IMG/VR virus record: IMGVR_UViG_3300016484_000424
Span: 1 to 58,780 of that record
DNA length: 58,780 nt
Origin: a virus
Taxonomy: Duplodnaviria; Caudoviricetes
Strand: one strand, 5' to 3'
Shown: positions 497 to 58,780 of the stretch, in pieces
Position numbering within the stretch: the first letter of the stretch is position 1
Layout: every line of letters starts with the position of its first letter
The notes under the pieces: generated by a model
The model's database searches: none
What the model was told of the DNA's origin: nothing
What the model saw: only the letters and a program-made list of their open reading frames with translations
Translations under genes and position numbers: made by a program

Positions 497-518
497 TTCT
501 TGGTGGAGTGAGGACTCT

Positions 519-1375: not shown

Positions 1376-1376
1376 A

Positions 1377-1429
1377 GCCGAACTCACCGCTGACCGGCTC
1401 GAAGAGTCCGGTCTAGCAAGACGTTGGAC
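1377..1429 (-). mobile_element. attC-like site R5 (53 bp)
   Basis: Minus strand GTCCAAC-gtctt-GCT(A)GACC...GGTCAGC-ggtga-GTTCGGC. Confidence 0.85.
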
Positions 1430-1784: not shown

Positions 1785-1875
1785 CTCAGTAGCGACACAA
1801 AGGCCGGGAGTTCCGGTCCTAACAACAAGCTGCTGCCCGAGTCGGGCGTCAGCGTCGCCAGATCACCCACAAAGC

Positions 1876-1914
1876 AAGGCCCCTGAGCTTCATCGCCAGG
1901 GGCCTTCGTCATTT
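1876..1914 (+). terminator. Candidate tR'-like terminator
   Basis: AAGGCCCCTG...CAGGGGCCTT 10-bp stem with weak U tail. Confidence 0.45.
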
Positions 1915-27672: not shown

Positions 27673-30600
27673 ATGGCTCGTGAAATTGAGTTGCACGATG
27701 GTACGGTCCTCGAATTTCCAGACAACACGCCGGATGACGTGCTGCTTCGCGTTGGCAAGCAGGAGACGCTGAAGCTCAACCAGTACAACACCGACGAAAC
27801 ATCGCGCCTTGCTGCGCGGGCCAATGCGGCGAAGGCTGATCCGGCGCCAGTTGCTGACGCGCCAGACAACTCGCCAGCGATGCCGATCGTGCCGTCATCG
27901 ACGCCATCGGTCTATGCCAACCCGGTGCAGCGCCTGCGGCGCATGGACAACCAGCAGCAGGCCGCGGCCACTGCGGCGACGCCACTGCTTGACCGGCCTG
28001 TTCCGGGCTATCAGCCATCGGGAGCCGACCTTGAGGCGATGTCCAATGCGCCGTCAGTGCTCCAGGCTGACGCGCGAGCCAAGCGGCCGTACCAAGAGGC
28101 CAAGCCGCTGACGTTTGCGCAAGAAGTCGCGGCCGACGTGGGCGACGTGGCGCGCAAGAACCCGCTGGCGGCTGGCGTAGTTGCTGGCTTCTCGGGTCTT
28201 GGCAAGGTTGGCGTGGGCGCCGTGCGCGCGGGAGCCGATCTGGTTGGTGCCGATGGCATCGCCAAATCAGCCGCTGGCGCGAGCCGCCTTGCCACCGACG
28301 TAGAGCAGCAGGCGACACGAGGCCTGGACGGCAATGCAAAGCTGGTGGCCGACGTTACCAGCTCGATCATCAACAGCGCGCCATCCCTGGCCATGGGCAT
28401 GATGGGCGGCCCCGCCCTGCGCACGCTGTTTGTCACTTCGGCGGCCAATGAGTACAACGCCGGCCGCGATGCTGGATTCAATGGCGCAGAGTCGGCGGCA
28501 CGCGCCGGCATCATGGGTGCGGCCGCGGCCATCGGCGAACGCTTTGGCTTTGCGCAGCAGATCGGCTTGCTCAAGGGCGCCATGAAGCGCATGCCGTCTG
28601 GCGACATGGCGAAGCTGCTGGGCCAGATGATCACCAACGAAGTGCCGGGCGAGCAGTTGACCACCGCCCTGCAGTTCCTGGCCGACAAGGCTGGCCCTGC
28701 GGCACTGAACCCGAATGCGACGGTTGAGGACTACCTCAAGGCCGCAGGCGAAACGTTGAAGGTCACGCTTGGCCAGTCGGCCGTCATGGGCGGCGGCCCG
28801 GTGGCAATCAACAAGGCGCGTGAAACACTGAAGCGGGTTGACTCTGGCTCGGGCGTGCGGGACATCCGCATTGCAGACGCCATCGACGCAGCCGAGCCCC
28901 CCAAGCGCCCGACCGAACTGCGCACCGAGCACATTGCCCGTGTTGACGACTTCGCGGCCACCCATGGCGTGCCGCCGACGGTGGTCAGCAAGATCAAGTC
29001 TGCACTGGACGGCGTGCCGCTGGCGCAACTGCCGCAGGCCACACGGGCGATTGTCTCGACCCTGGCCGAGCGCGGGATCATCCGGGCGCCGGTGGACGAG
29101 CAGACGCTGGCGAGCCTGGATGCGCCTGCACCGGTTCAGAGTGCGCCGAAGGATGCCATCCCGGCGGCCGACCTGATCGACCCGCAAGAGCCGAGCGCTC
29201 CACCGCCTGCCGACCCGCAGACCATTGCAGGCCCAGCCATCAACCGCAACTGGACGGCATTCAGCCCCGAGTCGGGCTCGCTGGGCATACCGCGCGACCA
29301 GATGCCGCAGATCCCGAACCGCGGCGCCCTGGCGAACTTCCTGGCCGCCAAGGGCATCGAGCGCCAGACCGGCATGGTGGACCCTTCGGAACTGAAGCCC
29401 ACGCAAGGCGAGTTCTCGCCTCAGAAGATCACGGAATCCGATTCCAGCCGATCGGTCATCGTTTCGAGCGACGGGTACATTCTGGATGGGCACCACCAAT
29501 GGCTGGCCCACTTGAACGACGGGGCGCCTGTCAGCGTCATCCGGTTCAACGCACCGATTCAGGATCTCCTGCGCTTGGCGCACCAGTTGCCGAGCAGCAC
29601 CACGGCCAAAGGGCCGACCATCAAGAAAGCCCAACCAGATGCAGGAACTGTTGACGGAAATGCTGGGCTTGGAGTTGATCAACCTGGAGCAGTTCAGCGA
29701 AGCGATGGCCTTCAGGATGTCCCCAGGGCTGATGCCGGAGCCGCTGCTGTTCCACCTGATGGGCGCCGAGAGCCTGATGGACCTGGACCCGGAAAGCGCG
29801 ACGATGCACTGACGCTGGACACGATCCAGCCGGGCGACATCACGCGGCCGGGTGGGGCGCCTTTCAGGACCATGGCAAATGCCATGTCGGCGCTGTCTCG
29901 CGCTGGCCAGGACACGCACGAGCTCGCAAGGGTCGAGGGCGGCTTGGTTGTCAGGGCGAAGAAGCAGGATCAGGGCGCTGCTGCGCCTGTAGGGGCCGGG
30001 AGTTCCCAGCCGTCGCCTGCTTCTTCGGCACCTGTTCGCGTCATCGCAGACGCTGGCCGCACGCGGGCTCAGGCGGTGCAGTTGGGCGTTGTTCCGAACG
30101 CTGACGGCTCCCTGACGCCCGTGATCGGCGGCGCACCGGTTCTGCAGAAGACCGGCGAGCCCGTGACCATCAAGCCTGATGCGACTGACCTTCAGATCAA
30201 GAAGGCTGTGCGCGAAGCAGGGACTGTGCCTGAGGCGGTGAAGTTCTACCCGCCTGCGGTGCAGGAGGAAGACGCGCCGCCAGCACCGAGGATCGACAAG
30301 GCGAAACTCGGCGCGATGACGGCTGACGAACTCGCCAGCGCTCATGAGACAGCGCGCGCCCACAACAAGGAAGTTGAGCGCATCGGCCTGAAGAAGTTCT
30401 TCGGCGCCGAGAAGGCCGACGAGTTGATGAAGCTGCCGCAACGCAGGCGCGACAAGTGGATGAGCGAGAACCTGACCGTCGAGCAAGACGACTGGATGCA
30501 GGCTCGCTATGCCAACGAGGACGATGTGCAGTCGTTCAAGACCACGGCGCATTCGTTCGACACGGAGAGCGCGGCCGCGCTTGGCCGATCCATCGCCGTG

Positions 30601-33600
30601 CCGTCACGCAAGGTCAACGATCCGGGGTTCTTCGATACCCCTGACGGCGCCATGGTGCGCAATGCCCTGAGGTACGCCAAGGCCCAGGGTTGGGACATGG
30701 ATGCGGTTGTCGGCGCGATGCGCGGCCGCGCTGCTGAGTGGGCCGGAGACGATGCGCCCGAGTTGTTCGGCCGTCTGTTCAAAGAGGCTGGAGTGAAGCT
30801 GCCGAGTGCAGCCATACCGAAGGCCATCGAAGCACCCACCACCAAGCCCGAGAGTGCGGTTCCAACTGGTGACCGCACCCAAGAACGCGCAGAGCACGCC
30901 GCCCTACTCGAAGAAGCAGGCATCACCAAGGAAGAGATCAATGCGCTCCATGGCACCGACATCACAGAAGCCCTCGCTGAATCTCCCGCCAAGGCTGAAG
31001 ACAAGCCCGCAGCGCGAAGCACTGAGGCAGGGGGCGCTGAGCAAGATCCGGGAGATGTCGCCGGAGAAGCGGCAGCGCCTGATGCTGCTGGAGGCCAAGA
31101 GGCGGGGCCTGACCGTGAAGGGCTGACCCTCACCACGCACACCACCGCCAAGGGCAAGACCCTTGAGGGCTACATCGTTGCTGTCAGCAAGGAGCGCGCG
31201 GCCGAGATCGACCCCTATACATTCCGCAAGGATGGGGGCTACTTCATCCGCAAGGCCCGTGCTGATGAACTGAGCAAGGAAGAACTTGCGGCCCTGGCTG
31301 ATGCGAAGCCTGTGGAGGCGGCAGCCAAGCCTGAAGCCGCGGAGCCGAAGGCAGAAGCCGAGCCCGAGAAGCCCAAGGCCAGCAAGACGGCCGCCATGCG
31401 TGCGGTGGCCCAGCGCGCCATCGAAGCCGCCCAGGCCGACCAGTCGCGCGACCGGAACACGAACACCGCGCGCCGTGCTGCAATGGCGAGTTCTGCGGAG
31501 TCTGACGCTCGCAAGCGCGAGGCAGTTGGCCGAACGATGCTGAACCTGGCTGACGCCATCGACAAGGGCGAAGCGCCTTTGCTGGAGGGCATCACTACGC
31601 GGGCACACGTTGAGGAACTGGACAGGGCGCTCACGGCGGCCATGTACGAGAGCGACCGAGGCTTGTCCTACGTGGAACAGCAGCGCCAGAAGGGCCGCGC
31701 GCCGGAAGAGCGCGACATCGCTAACGCCAAGATTGTGCAGCCGTCATGGAGCAATGGCGGTGCCAACAAGGAGAAACTGCGCGAAGCCATCAAGGGCAAG
31801 AAGGGTGTCCGCGAGGTCGAGAAGTTGCTGTTCGGCCCGCCGACTGCCGAGCTTCTGGCGGCCGTCAAGGCTATGGGCGTGTCCAAGAAGGACATTGACT
31901 ACGCTTTCGGCTGGTGGAACATCGAGGCGATTGCCCGCGTTCAGCGTCTTGCCAAGGTCGGCATCAAGACGAACGATGACTTGCGCGCTGCGCTGCGGCA
32001 GTACATTCAGTTCAAGGACGGCCCGAAGGCCGAAGACCCCATCAAGGCCCTGGAGCGCAAGTTGATCGGCTCCAAGGTGGGCTTTGACTTCTTCCCCACG
32101 CCCGCTGGCGTTGCCCAGCAGATGGTGCAACTGGCCGACATCAAGGCTGGCGACCGCGTGCTTGAGCCAAGCGCTGGCAACGGCAACATCGCTGACGCAG
32201 CCAAGGCCGCAGGCGCCAAGGTGGATGTCATCGAGATCAGCAGCCAATTGCGCGAGCTTCTGGAGGCCAAGGGCTACCCGGTTGTCGAGAACGACTTCAT
32301 GAAGTTCGAGCCCGCCGAGAAGTACGACGCGGTGCTGATGAACCCGCCCTTCAGCAACCGCCTGGACGCCGAGCACATCCGCCGCGCGTTTGGCATGGTG
32401 AAGCCCGGCGGCAAGGTCATCGCCATTGCTGGCGAAGGCGTCTTCAACGGCTCCGACGCGAAGGCCAAGGAGTTCCGCGACTGGCTGGACGAGGTTGGCG
32501 CAGTGGTCGAGAAGCTGCCCGAGAAGACCTTCACCGACTCCAAACTGCTGGCTCAGACTTCGACCAACGCACGGCTGATCACGATTGCGGCGCCTGCCGC
32601 ACAAGCCGCTGCCCCCAGTGCAACCACAGATGCACAGAAGGCTGCGAAGAGTGAGGAAGTTGCAGCAGAGCCAGCCAAGCCAGCAGCGCAGTCCAAGAAC
32701 TCCACAAATCTGTTTGAGGAGTTCATTGCGAGTTATGAGACTCCGCAAGAGGCTGGTGCCGCACGCAAAGCACTGGGCGCAACGGTGACTTGGAAAAACG
32801 GACTCACGGGGGCCTTGTCGGACCACATCCTTTCTGAGTATTCGGCTGGCGCCCGCGTTGTTCTGAGTGCCAGCGGGCCAGCGTTTGTCCACAAAGACAT
32901 GAAGGGATGGTCTAAGAGCAACATCGGCGCGTACGGCATGCAGTTTGCCAATTGGCTTTCGTCGCAAGACGATGTTGGAGCCAAGCCAGCAGCGCAGGCT
33001 GAGAAGGCCCTATTCAACACCAAGGATGATGGCTACACTGCGACCAATGAGTTCCAACCCGACTTCTCAGAGCCCGCAAGAGCAAACATCCGGCTGCTTA
33101 CTCGTGGAGTCGGAGGTCGGGCCAATACGGTTCATCCTTATGTCGGAAGAAGCGTATCAGCGGATGCGCCCATCAGCCTTGTGGCCCAGGCCATCGGAGC
33201 GCGAGTACAGTGGTTCGGAGTACGGAGCAGTCTGGACGCGCAAGACAAGCGTGACTTCGGATTCTTCAACGGCGCAACCATTGGCGACACCATCTTCCTT
33301 CGATCCGAAGGCGTTGACAGACCGCACCTGACGGTTCTGTTTCACGAGTTCGCGCACTACTTGCGGAAGACCGATCCGCAGGCTTACGCGGAACTGGTCG
33401 ATGCTGTTTCGCCATTCGTCAAGGTAGACAAGTACGAAGCGGAATTTCCGAATACGGCTGTGGCGCGCAACGTCAAGACGCCTGACGGAGTTCAAGAAGA
33501 GTTCATGGGCGAGGTGCTGTCTGACGCATCCATGAGCCCCAAGTTCTGGAGCGCCCTCGGCAAGAACAACCCCTCGCTGCTTCAGAAGGTGGCTGGCTTC

Positions 33601-36600
33601 ATCTTCGACATGATCAACAAGATCAAGGCGACGGTGGGCTACTCCAACAAGACCGAGAAGTACCTGAGCGACTTTGACCGGGTGATGGAGCTTGTGGGCG
33701 AAGTGCTGGCGAAGCACGACATCAAGCCCAGCAGTCTCAGGGGCATGGATGGCAAGCCGGTCTACAACCGCAAGGAAGACGAAACCCCTGTCACCTCGCA
33801 AGGCCGCCTGAAGTCCAAGGTCGGCGACATGATCAATTCCCACTTCGCTGGCACGATCAGCGGGTGGGACAAGACAGTGGGCACGCCGTACAACCTGGCG
33901 CAGCGCAGGCCTCAGTTCAAGCGGGTGTTTGATGGCCTGACGGACTTCATCAATGGGGTTTCGACCTTTGCGCATACCGCCGCTGACAAGGCGCCGACGT
34001 GGCTTCCAAGTCTGAACAGCGTCAGCGACTTCTTTGAGCGCCGCCCTGCGGACAGCAAATCATTGCTTCCATTCCGCATCAAGACCCCAGTGAAGCGCGA
34101 AGACAGCGATGCCGTGGCAAAGCCCATCTTCGAGGGCACCATCGCCTGGACCCGCGACGGCAAGGGCGAGCCCATCAAGATCGAAGAGGCCAAGGCCGCC
34201 GCCGAGAAGTTGAGCGTGGACGAGAAGGCCCGCGCGCTGCTGAAGGGCGGCCACGTCGCGCCGCGCGTGCTGAAGATGTGGCAGGGCCAGGAGCTCGACG
34301 CCTACGAGAAGATCATCGTCGGCAAGTACGAGCGCGACATGCTGGCTACCGGCATCGTCTTCACGCCCGACGAACTGAAGTCCATCTTCGGCCTGACGCC
34401 CAAGCAGATCGGGCTCTACAAGGAGTTCCACGCTGGTGTGGGCAAGAGCCTGGAGGACATGACGGTTTCGGCCATGCTGCGCGTTGGCGGCAAGGACACG
34501 GCAGACTTGCGCGAGCAGGCCCTGAAGATGTCCATGGACGATGCGGCCGAGTTGCTGCGCGACCGGATGTACGAACTGGCTGCCCAAGCATCTGGCAAGG
34601 CCAAGGAAGAGTTGGACGCCGCCGGCGACCAGATGATCGAACTGGCCGACAAGGTGAGCGCACTGAAGCGCCGCGGCTATGCCCCGCTGATGCGTTTTGG
34701 CGACCTGACCATCACGGCCTACGACAAGACCGGCGAGATGACCTACTTCGGCATGTACGAGGGCAAGGTCGAGCGCTTCACGGCCCTGCAGAAACTCAAG
34801 GCCGAGTTCCCTGAGGCAACCTTCAAGATGGGCTCAGTCTCCAAGGAAGAGTACAAGCAGTTCGCGGCCATCTCGCCCGAAACCCTTGAGCTCTTCGGCG
34901 ACATCATGGGCGACAAGCTGGGCTTCAACACCAGCGATCCGGTCTATCAGGAGTACCTGCGCAAGGCCAAGGCCAACAACTCGGGCATGAGGCGCCTGAT
35001 CCACCGCAAGGGCACGGCAGGCTACCGCGAAGAGCCGGCCCGCGTGCTGGCCTCGTTCATCTACTCCAATGCCCGGCAGACCTCGCGCAACCTGCACTCA
35101 GGCGACATCGCCCAGGCCATCGCCGACATTGACCGCGAAGAAGGTCAACTGAAGGACTACGCGATCAAGCTGGACGAGTACGTGCGCAACCCGCAGGAAG
35201 AGGCGCAAGCCATCCGTGGGCTGATGTTCGTCAACTTCATCGGCGGCTCGCTGGCCAGCGCTGCTGTCAACCTGACCCAGCCGTTTGCCGTCACCCTGCC
35301 CTACCTGCACGCCTTCGACGCCAAGGCCAGCCTCAGGATGAGCAACGCCCTGCGCGTGATGTGGTCCAAGAAGACCGGCAACACCAAACTGGACGCAGCC
35401 ATCGCAGAAGCCGAGCGCATCGGCATTCTGGATCCGCAGGAGATCCACCACCTACAGGCCCAGGCGCGCGGCGCCGAGCAACTGAAGTCTGGCAGGGGTG
35501 TGATCGGCAAGACCGCGGCCAAGGCCAGCAATTCACTTTCGCGCCTGATGGTCCTATGGGGCACGCCGTTCAGTCTGGCCGAGGCCTTCAACCGCCGCCT
35601 GACCTTCGTGTCGGCCGCGATGATCGCCATTCACAAGGGCATGGACCCAGTGGAGTTCGGCAAGAAGGCGATTGCGGAAACGCAGTTCGTGTATTCAAAG
35701 CACAACAACCCGGTATGGGCACGCGGCGCAGTCGGCGCAACCCTGTTCACCTTCAAGAAGTTCGGCGTCTCATGGATCGAAACCATGGTTCGCTTGGCCA
35801 ACTCCGGCCCGCAAGGTAAGGCCGCTGCGCTGGTCATGCTGGCCGCGCTGGTCATGCTGGCTGGTGTTGATGGCCTGCCCTTCCGCGAAGACCTTGAAGA
35901 CCTGATCGACGGCTTTGCCAACCGGGTGCTGGATCGCAACTTCCAGACGAAGGCATGGCGACACAAGCTGACCAAGCAAGTCTTCGGTGAGGGCTGGTCC
36001 AACTTCGTGAACAACGGGCTGTCGGGGCTGCCGGGATCGCCGATCGACGTGTCGGGTCGCTTGGGTATGCACAACCTGATTCCGATGACCGGCCTGATGG
36101 TAAAGAAGACGGACTACACCCGCGACGTGATGGAGATCACTGGCGCGGCCGGCGGCATCCTGAAGCAGTATGCTGAGGCAGCCGCTCTTCTTGCCGAAGG
36201 CGAAGTCTTGCGTACCGCGGCAAAGGCGTTGCCGATCGCAGGACAGAACATCCTCAAGGCGGCAGACATGGCGAACACTGGCGCCTACCGCGATGCTCGC
36301 GGGTACATCGTGACGAAGACGACGCCGGCCGAGGCCGCAGCCAAGGCGATTGGCTTCCAGCCGAAGTCGGTGGCCGATGAGCAGGAAGACAACTTCGGCC
36401 AGCAGCGCCGGATTGCCTTCGTCAAGATGGTTGAATCCGAGCTGGTCGAACGCATGGCGGCCGGCAAGTTCTTGAAGGATGAGGACATGTTCAAGGCAGC
36501 CAATGATCGCTTGGCCACATGGAACAAGGACAACCCGGACTCAGTGATCAAGATCGACGCCCGACAGATCATCGAGCGCGTGAAGAAGATGAACACGCCG

Positions 36601-36672
36601 AAGAACCAACGCATCATCCAATCCGCTCCGCGCGAAATGCGGGGCTCCGTTCAGGAGGCATTCCAGCGATGA
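27673..36672 (+). CDS. Giant polyvalent virion protein (PLxRFG family) with ParB-like, N6-MTase-like and zincin domains
   Basis: ILDGHHQW; FFPTP, VLEPSAGNG, NPPF; LFHEFAH; YAPLMRFG. Confidence 0.85.
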   Translation: MAREIELHDGTVLEFPDNTPDDVLLRVGKQETLKLNQYNTDETSRLAARANAAKADPAPVADAPDNSPAMPIVPSSTPSVYANPVQRLRRMDNQQQAAATAATPLLDRPVPGYQPSGADLEAMSNAPSVLQADARAKRPYQEAKPLTFAQEVAADVGDVARKNPLAAGVVAGFSGLGKVGVGAVRAGADLVGADGIAKSAAGASRLATDVEQQATRGLDGNAKLVADVTSSIINSAPSLAMGMMGGPALRTLFVTSAANEYNAGRDAGFNGAESAARAGIMGAAAAIGERFGFAQQIGLLKGAMKRMPSGDMAKLLGQMITNEVPGEQLTTALQFLADKAGPAALNPNATVEDYLKAAGETLKVTLGQSAVMGGGPVAINKARETLKRVDSGSGVRDIRIADAIDAAEPPKRPTELRTEHIARVDDFAATHGVPPTVVSKIKSALDGVPLAQLPQATRAIVSTLAERGIIRAPVDEQTLASLDAPAPVQSAPKDAIPAADLIDPQEPSAPPPADPQTIAGPAINRNWTAFSPESGSLGIPRDQMPQIPNRGALANFLAAKGIERQTGMVDPSELKPTQGEFSPQKITESDSSRSVIVSSDGYILDGHHQWLAHLNDGAPVSVIRFNAPIQDLLRLAHQLPSSTTAKGPTIKKAQPDAGTVDGNAGLGVDQPGAVQRSDGLQDVPRADAGAAAVPPDGRREPDGPGPGKRDDALTLDTIQPGDITRPGGAPFRTMANAMSALSRAGQDTHELARVEGGLVVRAKKQDQGAAAPVGAGSSQPSPASSAPVRVIADAGRTRAQAVQLGVVPNADGSLTPVIGGAPVLQKTGEPVTIKPDATDLQIKKAVREAGTVPEAVKFYPPAVQEEDAPPAPRIDKAKLGAMTADELASAHETARAHNKEVERIGLKKFFGAEKADELMKLPQRRRDKWMSENLTVEQDDWMQARYANEDDVQSFKTTAHSFDTESAAALGRSIAVPSRKVNDPGFFDTPDGAMVRNALRYAKAQGWDMDAVVGAMRGRAAEWAGDDAPELFGRLFKEAGVKLPSAAIPKAIEAPTTKPESAVPTGDRTQERAEHAALLEEAGITKEEINALHGTDITEALAESPAKAEDKPAARSTEAGGAEQDPGDVAGEAAAPDAAGGQEAGPDREGLTLTTHTTAKGKTLEGYIVAVSKERAAEIDPYTFRKDGGYFIRKARADELSKEELAALADAKPVEAAAKPEAAEPKAEAEPEKPKASKTAAMRAVAQRAIEAAQADQSRDRNTNTARRAAMASSAESDARKREAVGRTMLNLADAIDKGEAPLLEGITTRAHVEELDRALTAAMYESDRGLSYVEQQRQKGRAPEERDIANAKIVQPSWSNGGANKEKLREAIKGKKGVREVEKLLFGPPTAELLAAVKAMGVSKKDIDYAFGWWNIEAIARVQRLAKVGIKTNDDLRAALRQYIQFKDGPKAEDPIKALERKLIGSKVGFDFFPTPAGVAQQMVQLADIKAGDRVLEPSAGNGNIADAAKAAGAKVDVIEISSQLRELLEAKGYPVVENDFMKFEPAEKYDAVLMNPPFSNRLDAEHIRRAFGMVKPGGKVIAIAGEGVFNGSDAKAKEFRDWLDEVGAVVEKLPEKTFTDSKLLAQTSTNARLITIAAPAAQAAAPSATTDAQKAAKSEEVAAEPAKPAAQSKNSTNLFEEFIASYETPQEAGAARKALGATVTWKNGLTGALSDHILSEYSAGARVVLSASGPAFVHKDMKGWSKSNIGAYGMQFANWLSSQDDVGAKPAAQAEKALFNTKDDGYTATNEFQPDFSEPARANIRLLTRGVGGRANTVHPYVGRSVSADAPISLVAQAIGARVQWFGVRSSLDAQDKRDFGFFNGATIGDTIFLRSEGVDRPHLTVLFHEFAHYLRKTDPQAYAELVDAVSPFVKVDKYEAEFPNTAVARNVKTPDGVQEEFMGEVLSDASMSPKFWSALGKNNPSLLQKVAGFIFDMINKIKATVGYSNKTEKYLSDFDRVMELVGEVLAKHDIKPSSLRGMDGKPVYNRKEDETPVTSQGRLKSKVGDMINSHFAGTISGWDKTVGTPYNLAQRRPQFKRVFDGLTDFINGVSTFAHTAADKAPTWLPSLNSVSDFFERRPADSKSLLPFRIKTPVKREDSDAVAKPIFEGTIAWTRDGKGEPIKIEEAKAAAEKLSVDEKARALLKGGHVAPRVLKMWQGQELDAYEKIIVGKYERDMLATGIVFTPDELKSIFGLTPKQIGLYKEFHAGVGKSLEDMTVSAMLRVGGKDTADLREQALKMSMDDAAELLRDRMYELAAQASGKAKEELDAAGDQMIELADKVSALKRRGYAPLMRFGDLTITAYDKTGEMTYFGMYEGKVERFTALQKLKAEFPEATFKMGSVSKEEYKQFAAISPETLELFGDIMGDKLGFNTSDPVYQEYLRKAKANNSGMRRLIHRKGTAGYREEPARVLASFIYSNARQTSRNLHSGDIAQAIADIDREEGQLKDYAIKLDEYVRNPQEEAQAIRGLMFVNFIGGSLASAAVNLTQPFAVTLPYLHAFDAKASLRMSNALRVMWSKKTGNTKLDAAIAEAERIGILDPQEIHHLQAQARGAEQLKSGRGVIGKTAAKASNSLSRLMVLWGTPFSLAEAFNRRLTFVSAAMIAIHKGMDPVEFGKKAIAETQFVYSKHNNPVWARGAVGATLFTFKKFGVSWIETMVRLANSGPQGKAAALVMLAALVMLAGVDGLPFREDLEDLIDGFANRVLDRNFQTKAWRHKLTKQVFGEGWSNFVNNGLSGLPGSPIDVSGRLGMHNLIPMTGLMVKKTDYTRDVMEITGAAGGILKQYAEAAALLAEGEVLRTAAKALPIAGQNILKAADMANTGAYRDARGYIVTKTTPAEAAAKAIGFQPKSVADEQEDNFGQQRRIAFVKMVESELVERMAAGKFLKDEDMFKAANDRLATWNKDNPDSVIKIDARQIIERVKKMNTPKNQRIIQSAPREMRGSVQEAFQR

Positions 36673-36869: not shown

Positions 36870-37064
36870 ATGGCTTGGGTAGCAGTCAAGTCGCGCGCCA
36901 TCCGCGCCATCGACTACGACAAGGAGAGCCTTGAGCTCGAAATCATGTTCGCTCAGGGGAATTCCTACACCTACTACAACGTCCCGCCGCAGGTTGTGGC
37001 TGGCCTCTTGGGTGCGAACTCAAAAGGCCAGTTCTACAACAACTTCATCAAGGACCGGTACTGA
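36870..37064 (+). CDS. KTSC domain protein
   Basis: V.S..I.AIDYD....LEI.F..G..Y.Y..VP.....L..A.SKG.FYN..IK..Y. Confidence 0.9.
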   Translation: MAWVAVKSRAIRAIDYDKESLELEIMFAQGNSYTYYNVPPQVVAGLLGANSKGQFYNNFIKDRY

Positions 37065-37818
37065 ACAAATCCTTCGGCGTCTTCACCGAGAAGATTCCGG
37101 CCAGCTTGGTCAGCCCCTTGGGCAGGATGTGGCAGTACGGCGCGTGCACCTTCTGACCAGTCTTCTGGTCGGTGTAGCTGCATTCCTTGTACTGCAGGTT
37201 TCCGTTCTTGATGTGCGGCTGGTAGGCCACCCATCTGCCATTGAGGCGATAGACCCAGCCGTTGGCATGCAGCCAGTTGGTCAGTTCTTCTTGCTTGACG
37301 CTCAGGATCTTGCTGGCTTCTCGGAAGGTGATCGAGCCTTCTTCGGCTGAGATCAGGTCCAGCGCATCAGCCTTGGGCGCAGCGATGGCCAGGGCGGTTT
37401 CTGCCTTGTCGGCGCGCTCTGACTCGTCAGCGGCAAGGCGAAGCGCTTCGGGCAGGCTCTTGGGGATCTTGCCGTAGAAGCCCGAGGCTGCCAAGTTCAC
37501 CTGCTGCATGCAGACCATGGCGTCATAGGCCCGGATGACCTTCAGGTGGAAGGCTGCATTGATCCACATGGCGTAGGCGTAGACCAGCTCCTTGGCGACG
37601 TAGGTGCCCTGTTCGTTTGGAATCCCGCCCTTTTGGGCCGATGCGGAAATTCCCGCATCGCCAAGTTCGGCGATCAGTGCCTGGGTCTGCTTGTTACGAA
37701 GCCACTCGCCCGGCCTGTGGTTGGGATTCCCGCCGCTGGCCTTGTGCAGATCGTTCAGGCAGTACCGCCCTTCCCGGTCAATGCGGATCTCGATGTTGGC
37801 GATGATGAGTTCGCTCAT
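37048..37818 (-). CDS. ant: Antirepressor (KilA-N plus KilAC/ANT)
   Basis: GRYCLNDLHKASG, GTYVAKELVYAYAMWI..AFHLKVIR; P.SLPEALRLAAD, APKA, PKGL.KLA. Confidence 0.9.
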   Translation of the reverse strand: MSELIIANIEIRIDREGRYCLNDLHKASGGNPNHRPGEWLRNKQTQALIAELGDAGISASAQKGGIPNEQGTYVAKELVYAYAMWINAAFHLKVIRAYDAMVCMQQVNLAASGFYGKIPKSLPEALRLAADESERADKAETALAIAAPKADALDLISAEEGSITFREASKILSVKQEELTNWLHANGWVYRLNGRWVAYQPHIKNGNLQYKECSYTDQKTGQKVHAPYCHILPKGLTKLAGIFSVKTPKDLFSTGP

Positions 37819-38231
37819 TGCTTCACTCCCTTCGGAGCCGGGCAGCGGCGCAGGTTCACGTCCTGAATCGAGGTCTCCCAGAACTCGCGGCGGTCCACGG
37901 CGTTGTCATCCACGTTGCGGACCTTCAGGCCACGCGAGACAGACTGGATCAGCCACATGTTGGGCAACTCGTGGTTGTTGTCCGGGCCGATGATCTTGAC
38001 CACCGCGCCCCGGTTGGCCGGCAGGCATCCGCCCCAGAGGTAAGCGTAGTGGCCGGGCCAGATCCGGTGGCGCTGGCTGAGGGCGCTGACACCCTTTGGC
38101 AGACTGCGCTTTGTGCACGGCGGGTTGGCCACGGCCGGGCGGTCTTCCGGCCAGAGGGCGATGACGTTGGGCGCGATCAGGCGCCGTTGGGGGATGAGGT
38201 CTTGCGCTTGGATGCGCTGGGCGTTTGCCAT
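37815..38231 (-). CDS. Hypothetical protein of the antirepressor operon
   Basis: GGAG RBS; overlaps the ant start. Confidence 0.55.
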   Translation of the reverse strand: MANAQRIQAQDLIPQRRLIAPNVIALWPEDRPAVANPPCTKRSLPKGVSALSQRHRIWPGHYAYLWGGCLPANRGAVVKIIGPDNNHELPNMWLIQSVSRGLKVRNVDDNAVDRREFWETSIQDVNLRRCPAPKGVKQ

Positions 38232-38275
38232 GGTGGGCTCCGAGTGCTCGTTTGCATCGGCTGCACGCCCATCTG

Positions 38276-38461
38276 TCACAAAAGGCGGCAGCCCTGGCGG
38301 GTTGACAGACAGGGAGCACCGCGGAGCGGAAACCTGCGAGCCTTTCGGCTCCCCGCCAGGACCACCATTGAAAGTGTCCAGGCAACAAAAAAGCCGCAGA
38401 AGAACTCGATGCGGCTTTGGCCGCGGTACTCTCGGGCTGTCAAACCCGACTGCTTTCTCAA
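38276..38461 (-). CDS. Ash/Icd-like leader ORF
   Basis: CGFF......MV..AG..K.R pattern; overlies the antisense RNA. Confidence 0.4.
   Translation of the reverse strand: MRKQSGLTAREYRGQSRIEFFCGFFVAWTLSMVVLAGSRKARRFPLRGAPCLSTRQGCRLL
38285..38368 (-). ncRNA. C4/CI-type antisense RNA
   Basis: CCTGGCGGG/CCCGCCAGG closing stem, GAGCC-GAAA-GGCTC hairpin; CCGCGGTGCTC and CTGTCAA are complementary to upstream TTGACAG..GAGTACCGCGG (38421-38446). Confidence 0.7.
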
Positions 38462-38519: not shown

Positions 38520-39176
38520 CTACCGCTTCAGCAGCACCGTAGCCACGCCAATGTTCCCGATCACCGCCCCGCCGATCAAAAGCTTGTCGGACTGTATCAA
38601 GACGCCGGACCCAGTTGAGTTTGGTGCGCCGCATGGCGCCGGCCCGAGATTGAGTGTCAGGCGGTAGAAGTTCTTGCCGGAGGGGTCAGGAGCCACGGAG
38701 CCAGTGGCAGTACAGCCAGCATTTACGCCAACGAGAGCGCCGGAACTCGAAATCGTCACAGTGCCACCTCCATCCGGCGTGTAGGTGCCAGCAATATTGG
38801 CGAGGCTTGCGGCCGTGTCGTAACCCGGAAAGTAGGTCAACGTCAGCGGTCCTGTGACGCCGAGGGCGGAAACGGTGCCGGCGATTTTTGACTTCTCGGT
38901 GATCGTCCCGGTCAGAGTTCCGGGGATGGCGAGAGGTGGGGCGTACGCATTGAATTGTCCGCTGAGGGAGGACCCAGAAACAGAGATGTTCCCGGCCAGC
39001 AAGTACGGGCTGTTTCCCGAGACGCCAACAGCCCAGAACTCGCCAGTGTTGGCAATCAACACACCGAGATTATCAGAATCCCAGAACCCTTCGGCAGAAG
39101 CCGCAGCGTCTCCACCGCCACCGCCGCCGCACCCGGCCAACGCCACGGCAAGCGCTGCAATCACTCGTTTGATCAT
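38520..39176 (-). CDS. Lipoprotein (moron)
   Basis: MIKR..ALAVALAG-C-GGGGGG lipobox; beta-rich. Confidence 0.8.
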   Translation of the reverse strand: MIKRVIAALAVALAGCGGGGGGDAAASAEGFWDSDNLGVLIANTGEFWAVGVSGNSPYLLAGNISVSGSSLSGQFNAYAPPLAIPGTLTGTITEKSKIAGTVSALGVTGPLTLTYFPGYDTAASLANIAGTYTPDGGGTVTISSSGALVGVNAGCTATGSVAPDPSGKNFYRLTLNLGPAPCGAPNSTGSGVLIQSDKLLIGGAVIGNIGVATVLLKR

Positions 39177-39384
39177 GTTCTCTCCCGTTGTTTCGGCAGG
39201 GCTTTGAACAGCGCCGCCCCACCACAAGGCGCAAAGCATTATGTGGCCTGCTAGGCCGTGTTTGCCTTCAGGGACTGGCGGGGTTGAGCTTCACGAGCAA
39301 TTCCCCGGCGCCATCACGCGCGGCATACCGGCATTAGGCTTGCTTCTGCGATTGTTGTTATCCGTCATTTTTGCTGTGTCATGG

Positions 39385-39424
39385 GTGTTAGCGGCGCAAT
39401 TTGTCGCCCTAAATCAAGTTAGGC
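39385..39424 (+). mobile_element. attI-like site heading cassette array L
   Basis: TGTTAGCGGCGCAATTTGTCGCCCTAAATCAAG/TTAGGC vs attI1 TGTTACGCAGCAGGGCAGTCGCCCTAAAACAAAG/TT (recalled); no attC hairpin here. Confidence 0.75.
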
Positions 39425-39706
39425 CCGCTCATACGCAGCACGCAAGCGGGCCAAGTGCTCTTGGTTCATGTGGCCGTCGTCGAGGATGTCGGCAACCGCG
39501 GCCAGCAGTTCGGAGCCTGTGCGCTTGTCTGGCAGCACTTCCACACCCGCCACCTCGCGGTAGTCATAGGCGCCGTTCCGGTCCAGGCCGCCACCACGAA
39601 GCACGCTCTCCAACTCCTGGCACTCAGCATCTACGGTTTCCAGGCTCTCGGTAGCCAGCCCGGTTCCGCGATCAAGCTCGCGGCGGCGTATCACAAATCG
39701 AAGCAT
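39419..39706 (-). CDS. Hypothetical protein, cassette L1
   Basis: AGGAG RBS; stop falls in the core site. Confidence 0.75.
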   Translation of the reverse strand: MLRFVIRRRELDRGTGLATESLETVDAECQELESVLRGGGLDRNGAYDYREVAGVEVLPDKRTGSELLAAVADILDDGHMNQEHLARLRAAYERA

Positions 39707-39733
39707 GTTGATCTCCTAGGTTGTTGCGTGCCG

Positions 39734-39794
39734 GCCTAACAGGGCAATAGATCAGACCGGGCCGCGCCCGGCTCGCTCATCGCCAGCGTTAGGC
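39734..39794 (+). mobile_element. attC-like site L1 (61 bp)
   Basis: GCCTAAC-agggc-AATAGATC...GCTCATC-gccagc-GTTAGGC; L boxes imperfect. Confidence 0.8.
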
Positions 39795-40168
39795 CGCAGG
39801 GCCAGCATCGCTGCGCGGTACTGTTCGGTCTGCAGACGTTTCAGCGGTTCCTCGTTGCGCTTCAGCGCGCACCAAGCCACAGCGCCCGCCCACCCCCATT
39901 GCTCAACCGCTGCGCGCACTTCCTTCGCCTCGTGCGGCTCAAGCGCGCAGGCATCGGCGCTGGCGTAGTAAAAGGTGTCGTTGCAGTTCACGGCCGCGTG
40001 CCATCCATCATCCCAATCGCATATGCCCGAGTTGTAAGTGCCGAAGAAAACGTAGTTCCGCGCAGCTAGCCAAAACAGGTGCTCGCAGTCCTCCAGCGTC
40101 AGCGGCCTAACAGGTCGCTCAAGCGGGACCGCGTCGGCGCGGCTGCGTTGGTTTGCTTCGTCACTCAT
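39752..40168 (-). CDS. Hypothetical protein, cassette L2
   Basis: AAGGAGG RBS and start lie inside attC L2; NCNDTF.YA.ADA motif; ends inside attC L1. Confidence 0.8.
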   Translation of the reverse strand: MSDEANQRSRADAVPLERPVRPLTLEDCEHLFWLAARNYVFFGTYNSGICDWDDGWHAAVNCNDTFYYASADACALEPHEAKEVRAAVEQWGWAGAVAWCALKRNEEPLKRLQTEQYRAAMLALRPNAGDERAGRGPV

Positions 40169-40206
40169 GGCTCGCGCCTCCTTGTCCGGTTAGCTTTGCG
40201 TTATGC
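40105..40206 (+). mobile_element. attC-like site L2 (102 bp)
   Basis: GCCTAAC-aggtc-GCT(C)AAGC...GGTTAGC-tttgc-GTTATGC. Confidence 0.85.
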
Positions 40207-40470
40207 ATGCTCGAAGACATGGAACACCAGAGCGCCACCATGCGTTTGGTATGTGCCGATGAATCGCCCGATGATGTCTGGCAGATCAGGCATTGGCTTG
40301 ACCGTGCCATAGGTGGAAAACGCGCGCGATTCTGTCGGCGCCGTTTCATCAACAAGCGCCCACAGTTGCGGATCGCCGCCTTGCATCTGCACGCTCAGAA
40401 CTTCGGCGCCGCGCGGCATCAGCAATTCCTGATAGTCGGTTACCTGAAGGGTCCATTTCCAAATCCTCAC
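40201..40470 (-). CDS. Conserved small phage protein, cassette L3
   Basis: IWK..L.....Q...MP.GA.VLSVQ.Q....LWALVD...FIGT.Q...G.LVFHVFE. Confidence 0.8.
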   Translation of the reverse strand: MRIWKWTLQVTDYQELLMPRGAEVLSVQMQGGDPQLWALVDETAPTESRAFSTYGTVKPMPDLPDIIGRFIGTYQTHGGALVFHVFEHA

Positions 40471-40491
40471 GGCTCACTCCTTGCCATCAAT

Positions 40492-40578
40492 GCATAACAT
40501 CTAGCTGCAACAGACGCGCTGCAGCATTTGGGTTAATCGGTGCGTCCAGCGGGCGCGCTGTTGAGCATGGCGTTAGGC
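40492..40578 (+). mobile_element. attC-like site L3 (87 bp)
   Basis: GCATAAC-atcta-GCT(G)CAAC...GTTGAGC-atggc-GTTAGGC. Confidence 0.9.
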
Positions 40579-40865
40579 GGCTCGTGGCGCGCGGGCGGCC
40601 ATGCAGCGCGCGGGCTTTCGGCGTTGTCGGCCTCCATTGCCACCATCAGCGCAATCAGGGCTTCGCGGGTTCGCATCGAACGGCCGCCGCCAGCGCCGCC
40701 AGCGCAAAACTCCACCGTGCTGGTGTGAACTTGGCTGCCCATGCCCGTGCCGGTAACGGCCAGCACTACATCGCCGTCGTCCTGCAAATGCAGGACCATC
40801 TGGTGGTCGCCTGCAGGCCCCATATCGCCGCATCGTCCTACCGTCCGTTTCTTCGGCCATTCCAT
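40533..40865 (-). CDS. Hypothetical protein, cassette L4
   Basis: VEFC..G.GGGRS..TR.AL..L..AM..DN motif; C-terminus runs into attC L3. Confidence 0.75.
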   Translation of the reverse strand: MEWPKKRTVGRCGDMGPAGDHQMVLHLQDDGDVVLAVTGTGMGSQVHTSTVEFCAGGAGGGRSMRTREALIALMVAMEADNAESPRAAWPPARHEPPNAMLNSAPAGRTD

Positions 40866-40899
40866 CGCTCTCGCCCTTTCGTGCCTTCGTTCACCAGCC

Positions 40900-40997
40900 G
40901 CATAACACGTCGCTCAACACGAGCGCCAACGGGTCACGGCCTTTGCTCCTGTCCAGTCCTTCCCGCCGCTGGCTCCGTGTTAGCTCCAACGTTAGGC
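40900..40997 (+). mobile_element. attC-like site L4 (98 bp)
   Basis: GCATAAC-acgtc-GCT(C)AACA...TGTTAGC-tccaac-GTTAGGC. Confidence 0.9.
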
Positions 40998-41348
40998 CTT
41001 ACCGGGCCGCGCACGGGCAAAAGCTCCCACGCAGCTCGTGTCGCTCTTGGCCTGCTGCCTGAGTTCGGCCGCCGTGGTCACGCGCGGCTTGCTTCGGTGC
41101 TTGGCCGCTACCGCTTCAAGTTCTCGCGGCGTCACCGGCGCATTCATGTAGCCGCCCGCGTAGTCAGCGAGCGCCATGCGCAGTATCTGGTGCGCCTCGC
41201 GCCCTTCCGCGATCCGCACAACTTCCGGGGAGCGGTTTAGCAGCGCCACGGCTTGGCACACTGCAGCGTGCAGCGCTTCGGCGGCAGCAGGCCTAACCCC
41301 TCGGTCAACGGCGACACCTGCCGGCTGGTCACTCTTGCTCATCTTCAA
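40992..41348 (-). CDS. Hypothetical protein, cassette L5
   Basis: AGGAG RBS and start lie inside attC L5; stop falls in the core. Confidence 0.7.
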   Translation of the reverse strand: MKMSKSDQPAGVAVDRGVRPAAAEALHAAVCQAVALLNRSPEVVRIAEGREAHQILRMALADYAGGYMNAPVTPRELEAVAAKHRSKPRVTTAAELRQQAKSDTSCVGAFARARPGKA

Positions 41349-41391
41349 TCTCCTGTAGCGCCGCCGTCAGCGGCTCAACTCTGCGTTAGAA
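41291..41391 (+). mobile_element. attC-like site L5 (101 bp)
   Basis: GCCTAAC-ccctc-GGTCAACG...GCTCAAC-tctgc-GTTAGAA; L boxes pair poorly (possible hybrid). Confidence 0.7.
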
Positions 41392-41853
41392 CTCACCCTC
41401 CGCCACCTGGAAGCATGGCACGCCGGCAGCGCGCCACATCTTCACCATCCGGTCGCGGTCCTCAAACACTGCCACCAGCCGCGCCTTGTCGCTGACCAGC
41501 ATGTCGTCAAGCCAGCGCTTCTTGAGCACGTCGTCTGGTGTGTAGTCGCCGGCCTTGCGCATGGTCAACATCGGGCCTTCCAACTCCCAAGACATGAAGG
41601 TCGTCTTGTCGGCCAGCCACTTGACCGTCTGCGTCCGCACCTCATCGCTGCGCCCGCTGAAAATCCAGATGTCGGCCCCCGCATGGCGCAGCCGTTCCAT
41701 CGTGTCGATAACAGGGTCGTTCGGGAGGTCGTCCGCGCACGCGGCGTAAAACGCTTTCCAATCTTGTTCGCCGCGCGGGCGCTCCACGTACTTGCGGCGG
41801 TGCTCAATCAGCGCCAGGGTGCCGTCAAGATCAAAGATGTACAGAGGTCTCAT
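41386..41853 (-). CDS. HAD-family phosphatase (PNKP 3'-phosphatase-like)
   Basis: IFDLDGTL, SGR, MR..GD..PD..LK, FEDR..V.MWR..G.PCFQVA. Confidence 0.85.
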   Translation of the reverse strand: MRPLYIFDLDGTLALIEHRRKYVERPRGEQDWKAFYAACADDLPNDPVIDTMERLRHAGADIWIFSGRSDEVRTQTVKWLADKTTFMSWELEGPMLTMRKAGDYTPDDVLKKRWLDDMLVSDKARLVAVFEDRDRMVKMWRAAGVPCFQVAEGEF

Positions 41854-42797
41854 TTCGCGCCCCTCCGCTGCCAAGCCACCCAGCCCAGCCCCAGCAGCAT
41901 CAATGCCCACTCGGCAGGCTCTGGCACTGGCGCCACCGGCACAGCCGAGTCAGGCAGTTTCACCGGCTCTGGAACTGGTGCAACCGGCGCCCCAGGCGCA
42001 GGCGACATCACTGCATCACCGATGATCGGCGTCACCTTCTTCGCATCGATCACCATCGGCGCCACGCCCGGAACCGGCGCGAACGTCAGCACTGAAGGCG
42101 TGGCAGCAAACGCCACCGGCTGCACCCACAGCGGACCCAGGAGCGGCGCGGGCAGGGTCGGCCAGTAGATCGGTACAGCAGGCGGCAAGAGAGGTCGCCA
42201 AGTGTCTTCCGGCGTGTCCAACTCTTGGTTGCCATCGGGGATCGGCTCAGGCGCAGACAGCCGCGCGAATGATTGCCTCGGCACGGCATCGGCAACCGGT
42301 CCCGGCGTCACATCAGGCACGCTCACCGGCACGGCCACTGGCAGCGGCGGGACCAGCGCGGGCGGGGCTTCTGTCGTCAGGCTGGGCGGCGGTGAGATGC
42401 GATTGCCTCGGGTGATGAGGCTTACATTCCGGCAGACACTCGGGACCGCAATCGACCACTCGCCTACCGTGTAGATGAGCGCCCGCTCGCCGGTGTCCTT
42501 GGGCGCCCACATGCTGGTGTTGACAATGCCGCACAGCTTCGAGCCGTTCCCGAAGTGCATCATTCGCAGCGGGCCATATTCCCACGTTGCAGACGCGATC
42601 CCGGCGCTGGTGATGTGCGCTGTGTCGTCGTACTGGCGTGCGCGCATCTTGGCTTTCAGCGCCTCGCGGGTGGGCTTCGGAATCTGCGTGTAGGTGTCCA
42701 CAGCCGAAGGCAGATCGCCCATGTAGGGATCTAGGCCGCGGTCGGACCAATTGCACGTTGCAGTGATTGCCGCAGCGGCGGCTAGGGTGAGGATCAT
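41850..42797 (-). CDS. MHFG-family PEP-CTERM protein
   Basis: C.W...G.DPYMG, MHFG, VPSVCRNVS; C-terminal VPEP.EWALMLLGLGWVAWQRR. Confidence 0.85.
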   Translation of the reverse strand: MILTLAAAAAITATCNWSDRGLDPYMGDLPSAVDTYTQIPKPTREALKAKMRARQYDDTAHITSAGIASATWEYGPLRMMHFGNGSKLCGIVNTSMWAPKDTGERALIYTVGEWSIAVPSVCRNVSLITRGNRISPPPSLTTEAPPALVPPLPVAVPVSVPDVTPGPVADAVPRQSFARLSAPEPIPDGNQELDTPEDTWRPLLPPAVPIYWPTLPAPLLGPLWVQPVAFAATPSVLTFAPVPGVAPMVIDAKKVTPIIGDAVMSPAPGAPVAPVPEPVKLPDSAVPVAPVPEPAEWALMLLGLGWVAWQRRGAK

Positions 42798-57868: not shown

Positions 57869-58122
57869 CCGGCGAGCGCCCCACCGGATCAATCCCCGGA
57901 GTCGTCATCAGCGCCGTCATCACCGAAGGCCTGCGCATCAGCGTGGATGGCCGCCCTGCCCGGCTGGCGATCATCAGCGACGACGGGCAGATCGTGGACG
58001 ACAGCCCGCGCGTGGCCCAAGAAGTCGAGTCGGCTGCGATCAACAGCTACCGGAGCTTCCAGCGTGGGGCTGGGCATCTGGTGGTGAGGGCGGGTAACGC
58101 CCGAGTTCAGCCGCTGCCGTAG
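57865..58122 (+). CDS. Hypothetical protein ending inside attC R1
   Basis: ATGA overlap; reads through GGTAAC. Confidence 0.6.
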   Translation: MTGERPTGSIPGVVISAVITEGLRISVDGRPARLAIISDDGQIVDDSPRVAQEVESAAINSYRSFQRGAGHLVVRAGNARVQPLP

Positions 58123-58149
58123 GCAGTCGGCTGGAACGAAGTGTTAGGC
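58092..58149 (-). mobile_element. attC-like site R1 (58 bp)
   Basis: Minus strand GCCTAAC-acttc-GTT(C)CAGC...GCTGAAC-tcgggc-GTTACCC. Confidence 0.9.
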
Positions 58150-58175: not shown

Positions 58176-58622
58176 ATGATTGAACTGATGGAAGAAACCG
58201 CAAACATGATGCGCGGCATGTGCATGGACCCACGCATTCCAAAGGACACCAAGGAAGCGCTTTGGTCGCGCATCAGCAAGCTGGACGCGGCCACCGAAGC
58301 GGCGGCGGACGACAAGGCTGGAGAACCTGTAAGCAGCGCTTACGAGTTGAAGCCGGCCGCCTGGATCGACAACAGCGGCCACCCGCACCACCTGAACCAC
58401 ATTCAGGGCGTGCGTGAGCGACAGTTGTACGGCCCGCTGCGGCCCCTGTACGACGAGCAGGCGATGTGGAACGCCTGCGCGCGGGCCGAAGGCATAGGGC
58501 GCGACCAGATCAAGGCGCGACTGCTGGAATTGCACGAGGCGCACAAGCACCAGCACAACTACTTTGCGTGGGCTGTGCAGGAGTTGTTTGTGGCGCGCCG
58601 CTTTAGCGGACGAGTGGCCTAA
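58176..58622 (+). CDS. Hypothetical protein, cassette-borne
   Basis: GAGG RBS; stop falls in GCCTAAC. Confidence 0.75.
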   Translation: MIELMEETANMMRGMCMDPRIPKDTKEALWSRISKLDAATEAAADDKAGEPVSSAYELKPAAWIDNSGHPHHLNHIQGVRERQLYGPLRPLYDEQAMWNACARAEGIGRDQIKARLLELHEAHKHQHNYFAWAVQELFVARRFSGRVA

Positions 58623-58704
58623 CGCCAGGTTAAGCGGCGCCCCGCGCTGACAGGGGCAAGACGCGCGGACGCCCCTGGGCGTCCGCTTGAACCGACAGTT
58701 CGGC
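58617..58704 (-). mobile_element. attC-like site R2 (88 bp)
   Basis: Minus strand GCCGAAC-tgtcg-GTT(C)AAGC...GCTTAAC-ctggc-GTTAGGC; L boxes match those I recall for the aadA1 attC. Confidence 0.92.
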
Positions 58705-58780
58705 CTCACGGCCGTGGAGAAGCGAACGATGGAACAGCAAGCACTCAATCTGCCAGGGCCGCGGATCAGCCGCATTACGC

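Follow-up and report, generated by a model that had tools for sequence, protein, structure and literature searches.

A probable integron cassette array without an integrase gene in the leftward early operon of a P22-like phage

Clusters of attC sites are already known from phage genomes. From a survey of 10,705 phage genomes, the study of Qi et al. 2023 (Front Microbiol 14:1091391, PMC9892861) reports in its main text three complete integrons, one In0 and 17 clusters of attC sites, as well as recombination of phage attC sites with attI1 by the integrase IntI1. Here we analyse IMG/VR virus record IMGVR_UViG_3300016484_000424 (Duplodnaviria; Caudoviricetes), a linear record of 58,780 bp with a CheckV completeness estimate of 89%, which is taken whole and called the window below. 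A preliminary description had confined an integron-type cassette array to positions 39385–41391 and had regarded integrons as rare or absent in phages. The latter view is outdated (Qi et al. 2023, PMC9892861) and, because phage attC clusters are already reported there, the window is no new category. We conclude that the window most probably carries an intI-less integron cassette array in the leftward early operon of a P22-like phage, comprising an attI1-like site and five cassettes, of which the first four have intact attC sites and the last a decayed one, and that a second attC array lies in the rightward operon.

The phage clusters of attC sites lacking integron integrases (CALINs) described in the main text of that study (PMC9892861) resemble the window in several respects: there is no neighbouring intI, the cargo is small and mostly of unknown function, and a bacterial IntI is assumed to serve the attC sites. 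Compared with that main text, the window differs in having an attI1-like site, an array in each early operon, uniformly inverted open reading frames (ORFs) and a cassette that was traced between two phage contigs, with ends only a few bases from two G|TT cores. A literature search, which covered Qi et al. 2023 in its main text, found no report of an attI1-like site in an intI-less phage array, of uniformly inverted phage cassettes, of paired arrays in both early operons or of a cassette traced between phage backbones. With class 1 integrons the window shares the attC architecture, including a similar L'' sequence in some sites. It lacks intI, its ORFs are antisense to the attC top strand, its cargo is of phage type rather than resistance genes, and expression would come from phage early promoters, not from Pc. 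The sedentary integron of a Rubrivivax metagenome-assembled genome (MAG; G003), from Burkholderiales and thus the same likely host clade as the window, has its attC array beside an intI whose product is 61% identical to IntI1. Its attC sites are a uniform 132 nt, whereas the phage sites are 53–102 nt long, diverse and on the strand opposite to the genes; the clearest ORFs in G003 lie on the attC top strand, a strand call that is only partly clear. Lambdoid mosaic regions (morons, nin region) also hold small variable accessory genes in the distal parts of both early operons, as here. Their borders are short homologies or promoter–terminator units, whereas those in the window are site-specific recombination sites.

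The window has a G+C content of 62.7% and encodes a P22-type portal, a capsid protein, a 2999-aa virion protein, an ERF recombinase and a YqaJ-like exonuclease. The leftward early operon consists of minus-strand genes running from ∼46.9 kb down to 37.0 kb, plus-strand genes follow from ∼47.3 kb onward, and a control region lies near 47 kb. In the left array five sites (L1–L5), measuring 61, 102, 87, 98 and 101 nt, separate five small minus-strand ORFs (c1–c5). Their R'' boxes start at 39734, 40105, 40492, 40900 and 41291, and R' boxes at 39418, 39788, 40200, 40572, 40991 and 41385. Bit scores below refer to R1, a covariance model derived from 15 bona fide attC sites of class 1 integrons (the P1 record and seven plasmid loci) that were located by gene ends, aligned and given the textbook attC structure; searches were run with filters off.

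39357–39363, plus strand: DR2-like GTTATCC, separated by 23 nt (12 nt in attI1) from the DR1-like repeat that follows; weak, by position only
39387–39424, plus strand: attI1-like site, GTTAGCG (DR1-like), 9 nt, GTCGCCCTAAATCAA (L-like), GTTAGGC (R)
39419–39788, plus strand: cassette 1, with ORF c1 (95 aa, 39419–39706, minus strand) and its own attC L1
39734–39794, plus strand: attC L1, 26.8 bits, E 1.2e-4, inner stem weak
39789–40200, plus strand: cassette 2, with ORF c2 (138 aa, 39752–40168, minus strand) and its own attC L2
40105–40206, plus strand: attC L2, 24.0 bits, E 6.9e-4
40201–40572, plus strand: cassette 3, with ORF c3 (89 aa, 40201–40470, minus strand) and its own attC L3
40492–40578, plus strand: attC L3, 27.3 bits
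40573–40991, plus strand: cassette 4, with ORF c4 (110 aa, 40533–40865, minus strand) and its own attC L4
40900–40997, plus strand: attC L4, 41.7 bits
40992–41385, plus strand: cassette 5, with ORF c5 (118 aa, 40992–41348, minus strand) and attC L5
41291–41391, plus strand: degenerate attC L5, 12.8 bits, E 0.79, background level
41386–41910, minus strand: polynucleotide kinase–phosphatase (PNKP; HAD_PNKP), a backbone gene at the array border, Pfam E 1.3e-30, PHROG E 1.1e-42

Searched on both strands, the window gave 14 R1 matches at E ≤ 10. Eight of these reach E ≤ 7e-4, and all eight are intergenic sites of the two arrays. Among the five left-array sites originally proposed, four pass the model (24.0–41.7 bits) while the fifth, 41291–41391, fails it (12.8 bits). 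Matches in the arrays occur in one orientation only, the sole reverse-strand match scoring 12.5 bits, which is also the best score in the 50-kb P1 backbone. The GC-rich control loci gave no match, at E ≤ 1 in L002, L004–L006 and L008 and at E ≤ 0.1 in L039–L044; L022 and L024–L026 were likewise free of matches. The positive control was the Rubrivivax MAG, with eight 132-nt sites beside its chromosomal IntI (434 bits). Rfam, at gathering thresholds over the whole window, returned only a C4 antisense RNA and no attC family among the matches listed.

A rule-based scan for the pattern R''-5 nt-L''(3 nt + extra base)-6 bp-extra base-stem ... stem-L'-5/6 nt-R' found seven window sites scoring at least 17/20, against a mean of 0.005 per Markov-shuffled window (200 shuffles), and no site in the P1 backbone. 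The window sites score 16–19/20 and 16 known attC sites 13–19/20. The L box is asymmetric: L'' has one extra base relative to L', a second extra base follows 6 nt further in, and the spacers are 5 and 5–6 nt. These extra bases and spacers are those of bona fide class 1 attC sites. The core GTTAGGC occurs 10 times in the window (2.23 expected; 10 reached in 0/100 shuffles), seven times within 39418–41297 and three times (13, 58143, 58617) in the second array. Since the loose consensus GTTRRRY is not enriched (71 versus 64.9 expected in the window), the signal is the specific core. When 33 phage-associated sites were aligned to R1, in an alignment that is fitted to the model structure and favours pairing, 89.0% of cells were paired (69.8% in shuffles) and 128 cells carried double changes (43.3 in shuffles, reached by 0/500). 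Both sides change in 13 of the 14 inner-helix pairs, and pairing falls to 24–42% when the partners are slid out of register. Judged by sequence and predicted fold, sites L1–L4 are integron-type attC sites.

Each cassette was further said to begin with the complement of its own R'' flank. In the left array this pairing amounts to 10/11, 10/10, 9/9, 13/15 and 9/9. Over the eight cassettes of both arrays, 35/64 own-pair cells match at eight positions beyond the core, non-own R''/start pairs average 2.23/8, and the claim held in a permutation test (p = 0.0005).

Cassette 4 was found in a second phage context. Positions 3717–4166 of L038, an 8.2-kb viral contig from a different IMG/VR data set, are 98.2% identical to 40999–40549 of the window. 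The L038 record contains no IntI, and tblastx at E < 1e-8 across its 8.2 kb gave no other match to the window. The near-identity spans 40570–40999 with unrelated sequence on both flanks; the predicted cassette is 40573–40991, and the bases shared beyond it are the conserved core itself. In order, the block consists of GC-G|TTAGGCGG, c4 in antisense, attC L4 and AAC-G|TTAGGCCT, and the C-terminal tail of c4 beyond R' differs between the two contexts. The mobile unit is c4 together with the attC at the 5' side of the gene, and this settles the polarity. The borders proposed at G/TT could thus be located in another phage, at two R' cores: the G|TT cores are real cassette borders, as cassette 4 shows.

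Both contexts are present in one freshwater sample. The sole public run that holds the left-array stretch, X1, is a freshwater metagenome (runs X2 and X3 give next to no cover). Its Logan graph has an 18.9-kb contig (depth 14.9) that ends at 40599, a 430-nt contig (depth 24.4) equal to 40570–40999 and a 17.7-kb contig (depth 13.7) that begins at 40970. Two more contigs (depths 9.0 and 8.1) enter the cassette 4 unit and carry the flank letters of L038. The depths are additive, 14.9 + 9.0 being close to 24.4. Phages appear, from these sequences, to trade genes as integron cassettes.

The attC top strand is the plus strand in the left array and the minus strand in the right array, and the genes lie on the other strand in both. 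The initial assignment of the plus strand as left-array top strand, with inverted genes, is upheld by the orientation of the model matches and by the cassette 4 unit. The bottom strand of the window's attC sites, the strand known to fold and be cut (PMC13108822), is accordingly the mRNA-sense strand, and the 5' end of each gene abuts its own attC. None of the cassette ORFs has the canonical layout, with the ORF on the attC top strand and its 3' end beside its own attC. We also considered the minus strand as top strand, which would give canonical gene orientation. It was rejected because the extra bases then fall in the wrong arm; the plus-strand R1 matches and the 5'-side attC of cassette 4 also rule it out. 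Strand calling by G+C content at third codon positions (GC3) is ambiguous in these GC-rich arrays, as an in-register antisense frame gives the same pattern. Gene orientation therefore rests on protein homology: the DUF7352 match, the protein homologues of c4, c5 and c1, and the DUF4406 and phrog_424 matches.

c3 belongs to DUF7352 (Pfam E 5.9e-25) and phrog_3848 (PHROG E 1.1e-19), and a search of genome contigs with the DUF7352 alignment found no relative. c1, c2, c4 and c5 have no family match in the Pfam and PHROG searches, and c2 has no relative among the viral contigs searched. The TAA stop codon of c1 lies within the opening three bases of cassette 1. In the long sites L2 and L5 the attC loop contains the ribosome-binding site together with the start codon. 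The R' box of L5 (GTTAGAA) overlaps the stop codon of the PNKP phosphatase gene, and the c5 homologue in L045 (72% aa identity) has an intact 102-nt attC in the same place (39 bits). attC L2 is 80% identical to positions 4094–4194 of L003, where the site heads a different gene, and the two sequences diverge directly after GTTAGGCC. Near-identical attC sites with unrelated genes are a feature of class 1 arrays, which this pair mirrors.

An attI had been placed at the start of the array. The segment there, 39387–39424, closely resembles attI1 of class 1 integrons and is, on that strong sequence resemblance, a putative attI. In locus L014, attI1 reads GTTACGC, 9 nt, GTCGCCCTAAAACAAA, GTTAGCC; common to the window and class 1 integrons are the core GTCGCCCTAAA followed by CAA and GTTAG, and a GTTA repeat 9 nt upstream. 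The predicted crossover, after G39418, falls exactly at the start of cassette 1. The 20-nt core is unique in the window and was found in 0/100 shuffles. The attI regions beside intI in two related virus records (G010 and G012, see below) follow the same plan (GTTA repeat, GTC-headed block, GTTAGGC) and are less attI1-like. Between the window and G012 there is no attI homology, and the c1-like homology in G012 ends before the junction. The attI1-type core (GTCGCCCTAAA, 3–5 nt, GTTAG) was also seen in five further IMG/VR contigs (L103–L107), four of the matches being 21 nt, as in attI1.

The element is not confined to 39385–41391, as had been supposed. A second array, part of the rightward early operon, spans the record ends and is closely followed by the terminase gene:

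58092–58149, minus strand: attC, 41.2 bits
58176–58622, plus strand: 148-aa ORF between this attC and the next
58617–58704, minus strand: attC, 31.0 bits
13–105, minus strand: attC, 35.3 bits, own attC of the DUF4406 cassette
143–445, plus strand: DUF4406 ORF, E 1e-27
440–497, minus strand: attC, 31.4 bits, own attC of the PAPS-reductase-like cassette
519–1274, plus strand: 251-aa PAPS-reductase-like ORF, phrog_424 E 2.1e-47
1377–1429, minus strand: candidate short attC, 53 nt, rule-based score 17/20, absent from the R1 list at E ≤ 10

Three right-array cassettes were analysed, two of which have core variants of their own (GTTAGCC/GGCTAAC and GTTCGGC/GCCGAAC); GTTAGCCGGC at 98–107 complements GCCGGCTAAC at 438–447 in 10/10 positions. 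Both record ends lie inside this array (58705–58780 and 1–12), an ORF from 58730 being cut by the end, and a variable cassette array may be what interrupted the assembly. Further along, a 35-aa ORF with a hydrophobic core (1271–1378, plus strand) overlaps the 251-aa gene at its stop codon (ATGA) and terminates just ahead of the candidate attC (1377–1429). TCCTAAC at 1816–1822 (plus strand), which lies downstream of the last small gene, is a possible marker of where the right array starts on its top strand, and is followed by a terminator-like G+C-rich hairpin with a T-rich run (1877–1907, plus strand). No attI1-like sequence was found around 1816–1907.

R1 matches in related viral loci all lie on the strand opposite the homologous gene, and the inverted layout recurs in L003, L007, L038 and L045–L048. 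The integron integrase scored above the TIGR02249 cut-off in two of nine related virus records checked, G010 and G012:

L003: six attC matches, upstream of a PNKP homologue
L007: two attC matches, flanking a DUF7352 homologue
L038: three attC matches
L045: two attC matches
L046: seven attC matches
L047: one attC match
L048: three attC matches
L023 (Burkholderiales MAG contig): two attC matches, ∼9 kb upstream of a portal gene
G010: provirus, 95% complete, IntI 390 bits
G012: 92% complete, IntI 427 bits

Homologues of c4 with 45–55% identity (L039–L044) have no attC nearby, so the c4 gene family also exists outside cassettes. The IntIs of G010 and G012 are each 54% identical to IntI1 and the sole candidate found in their own record; the arrays begin at the 5' end of intI. 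Tentatively, the array ORFs of both records with GC3 > GC1 are placed on the intI strand, an assignment by composition; transcription would then run toward intI, as in an early-left operon whose last gene is int. Scanning with the G010 IntI gave 50 viral loci; R1 was run on 39 (L053–L091), 11 partial or weak matches being left out. Their IntIs are 42–100% identical to that of G010. R1 matches at E ≤ 1e-3 occur in 19 of the 39 loci (60 in total). Of these matches, 57 are found upstream of intI and on the strand opposite to it; the remaining three are in L081, where the attC sites are on the intI strand. Some of the loci are short and may not be phages, and provirus borders may have been drawn at the integrase. 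Several contigs are ∼40 kb long with IntI at one end. In a Burkholderiales MAG with a portal relative (G001:C291, L037), the IntI matches on one contig fall into three separate pieces, suggesting a broken intI, and a weak attC match lies nearby.

Several points weigh against the favoured reading of the window. No TIGR02249 candidate for intI was found in the 58.8-kb window. L5 fails the attC model and its arms are not complementary. ORFs c2 and c4 run through the R' core and stop in the attC of the adjacent cassette (in c2 the final 12 codons and the stop fall inside attC L1); these ORFs are therefore not fully self-contained. The R'' of L1 pairs as well with the start of the following cassette as with its own. 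In L007 the DUF7352 gene shares its cassette with a second gene and has another attC, so that the pairing of gene and attC is not constant over longer evolutionary distances. Run X1 may be the source sample of the window and is then independent for the second context only, and the covariation figures carry the bias of their alignment.

Four other explanations were considered. The phage could carry a complete integron, with intI in the missing ∼11% of the genome and acting in cis; the record is indeed linear and 89% complete, and two related records with a completeness of at least 92% have an IntI gene adjoining their arrays. However, intI is the direct neighbour of attI both in these relatives and in class 1 integrons. 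Here that place and orientation are occupied by a 239-aa ORF with a lipoprotein-like N-terminus and no family match (38520–39239, minus strand), no intI adjoins the attI-like site as in a complete integron, and tblastn of three IntI proteins against the window gave chance-level matches only, with no IntI remnant left of attI. The record ends fall in the right-operon array, far from attI, and we regard a complete integron as unlikely.

It is likewise improbable that the arrays have ceased to recombine and are the inert relic of a single capture, whether from a bacterial integron or from a phage encoding IntI. The lack of an intI in the record, the decay of L5 and the two ORFs that cross cassette borders would fit such a relic; the 98% identity of cassette 4 in an otherwise unrelated contig, with both contexts in one sample at depths of 14.9 and 9.0, would not. 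Moreover, the full attC architecture is kept at four of the five left-array sites and at four right-array sites, and the arrays lie in two separate operons.

That the array is integron DNA of the host chromosome, fused to phage DNA through misassembly or a misplaced provirus border, is a very remote prospect. The record derives from a metagenome and the contig graph branches at cassette 4, but phage genes stand on both sides of the array (PNKP, ERF and YqaJ on one, the C4 RNA, antirepressor and tail genes on the other), the Logan contigs of 18.9 and 17.7 kb meet at the array at similar depth, the cargo comes from phage families, and the terminase gene follows closely on the second array. That the hairpins are ordinary intergenic elements (terminators or repetitive extragenic palindromic (REP)-like repeats) and the genes no cassettes is scarcely credible: the sites are intergenic and attC sites are said to be weak terminators (PMC9892861), but the class 1 attC model matches in one orientation only, extra bases and spacers are as in bona fide attC sites, an attI1-like site is present, and cassette 4 has its borders at G|TT.

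An intI-less array would depend on an IntI1-like integrase supplied in trans, which would fold and cut the attC bottom strands. Possible sources are a chromosomal integron of the host, a co-resident IntI-encoding phage or the unsequenced 11% of the genome. The integrase would excise cassettes as circles and re-insert them at attI or at another attC, and phages in one host pool would thereby exchange accessory genes. We infer that shuffling of the window's cassettes by an integrase is ongoing. Cassette genes would be expressed by read-through from the phage early promoters, which would account for the inversion of their ORFs compared with the usual cassette layout. Integrases have been reported to drive insertion outside att sites as well (10.1101/2022.09.11.507474), and a first cassette could have entered the right operon in this way. 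On either side of the control region near 47 kb, the arrays are opposite in absolute polarity. Should replication start in that region, both sets of bottom strands would be lagging-strand template, an orientation that is reported to favour folding and, in Vibrio cholerae, to increase cassette excision (PMC13108822). We predict that inverted cassettes, with their bottom strands on the sense strand, are highly recombinogenic during phage replication.

More tentatively, a phage group of GC-rich freshwater Burkholderiales may use the integron as a built-in device for exchanging accessory genes, with the window's phage as an intI-less member; we think this possible rather than probable. Full members such as G010 and G012 would carry IntI as the last gene of the leftward early operon. 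This IntI may double as lysogeny integrase, since it is the only tyrosine recombinase candidate found in either record. The genes upstream of it would be cassettes with ORFs inverted for reading from the early transcript, and the window's phage would keep attI and borrow an integrase in trans.

Phage mosaicism is usually credited to homologous or illegitimate recombination. The window points to a site-specific alternative, in which phage accessory genes are packaged as integron cassettes; one such cassette was seen in two phage backbones within a single water sample. Class 1 integrons reportedly originated in the clade concerned here, an idea put forward by Gillings et al. in 2008. With its closely attI1-like site, the window links integrons to phage genome evolution in this clade of presumed class 1 origin. 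The host of the phage is probably a freshwater Burkholderiales, given the names of the MAGs that hold portal relatives (46–57% identity): Rubrivivax, Aquabacterium and Burkholderiales, with one Verrucomicrobiota MAG. In a blastn search of the array region against 50,697 phage records the PNKP gene alone was matched (4% of the query).

Two further features lie to the left of the array:

38281–38372, minus strand: C4 antisense RNA (RF01695), Rfam, 60.6 bits, upstream of the 154-aa ORF and antirepressor
37048–38279, minus strand: 154-aa ORF and KilA-N/ANT antirepressor

Together the C4 RNA and antirepressor form a P1/P7-type immI-like module inside a P22-like phage. The 2999-aa ORF (27673–36672, plus strand) stands among the tail genes and has a weak methyltransferase-domain match. 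On the other side of the array, a 315-aa proline-rich ORF (41850–42797, minus strand) overlaps the annotated PNKP start by 61 nt and shows a weak C-terminal PEP-CTERM match (E 0.0059, below the cut-off).

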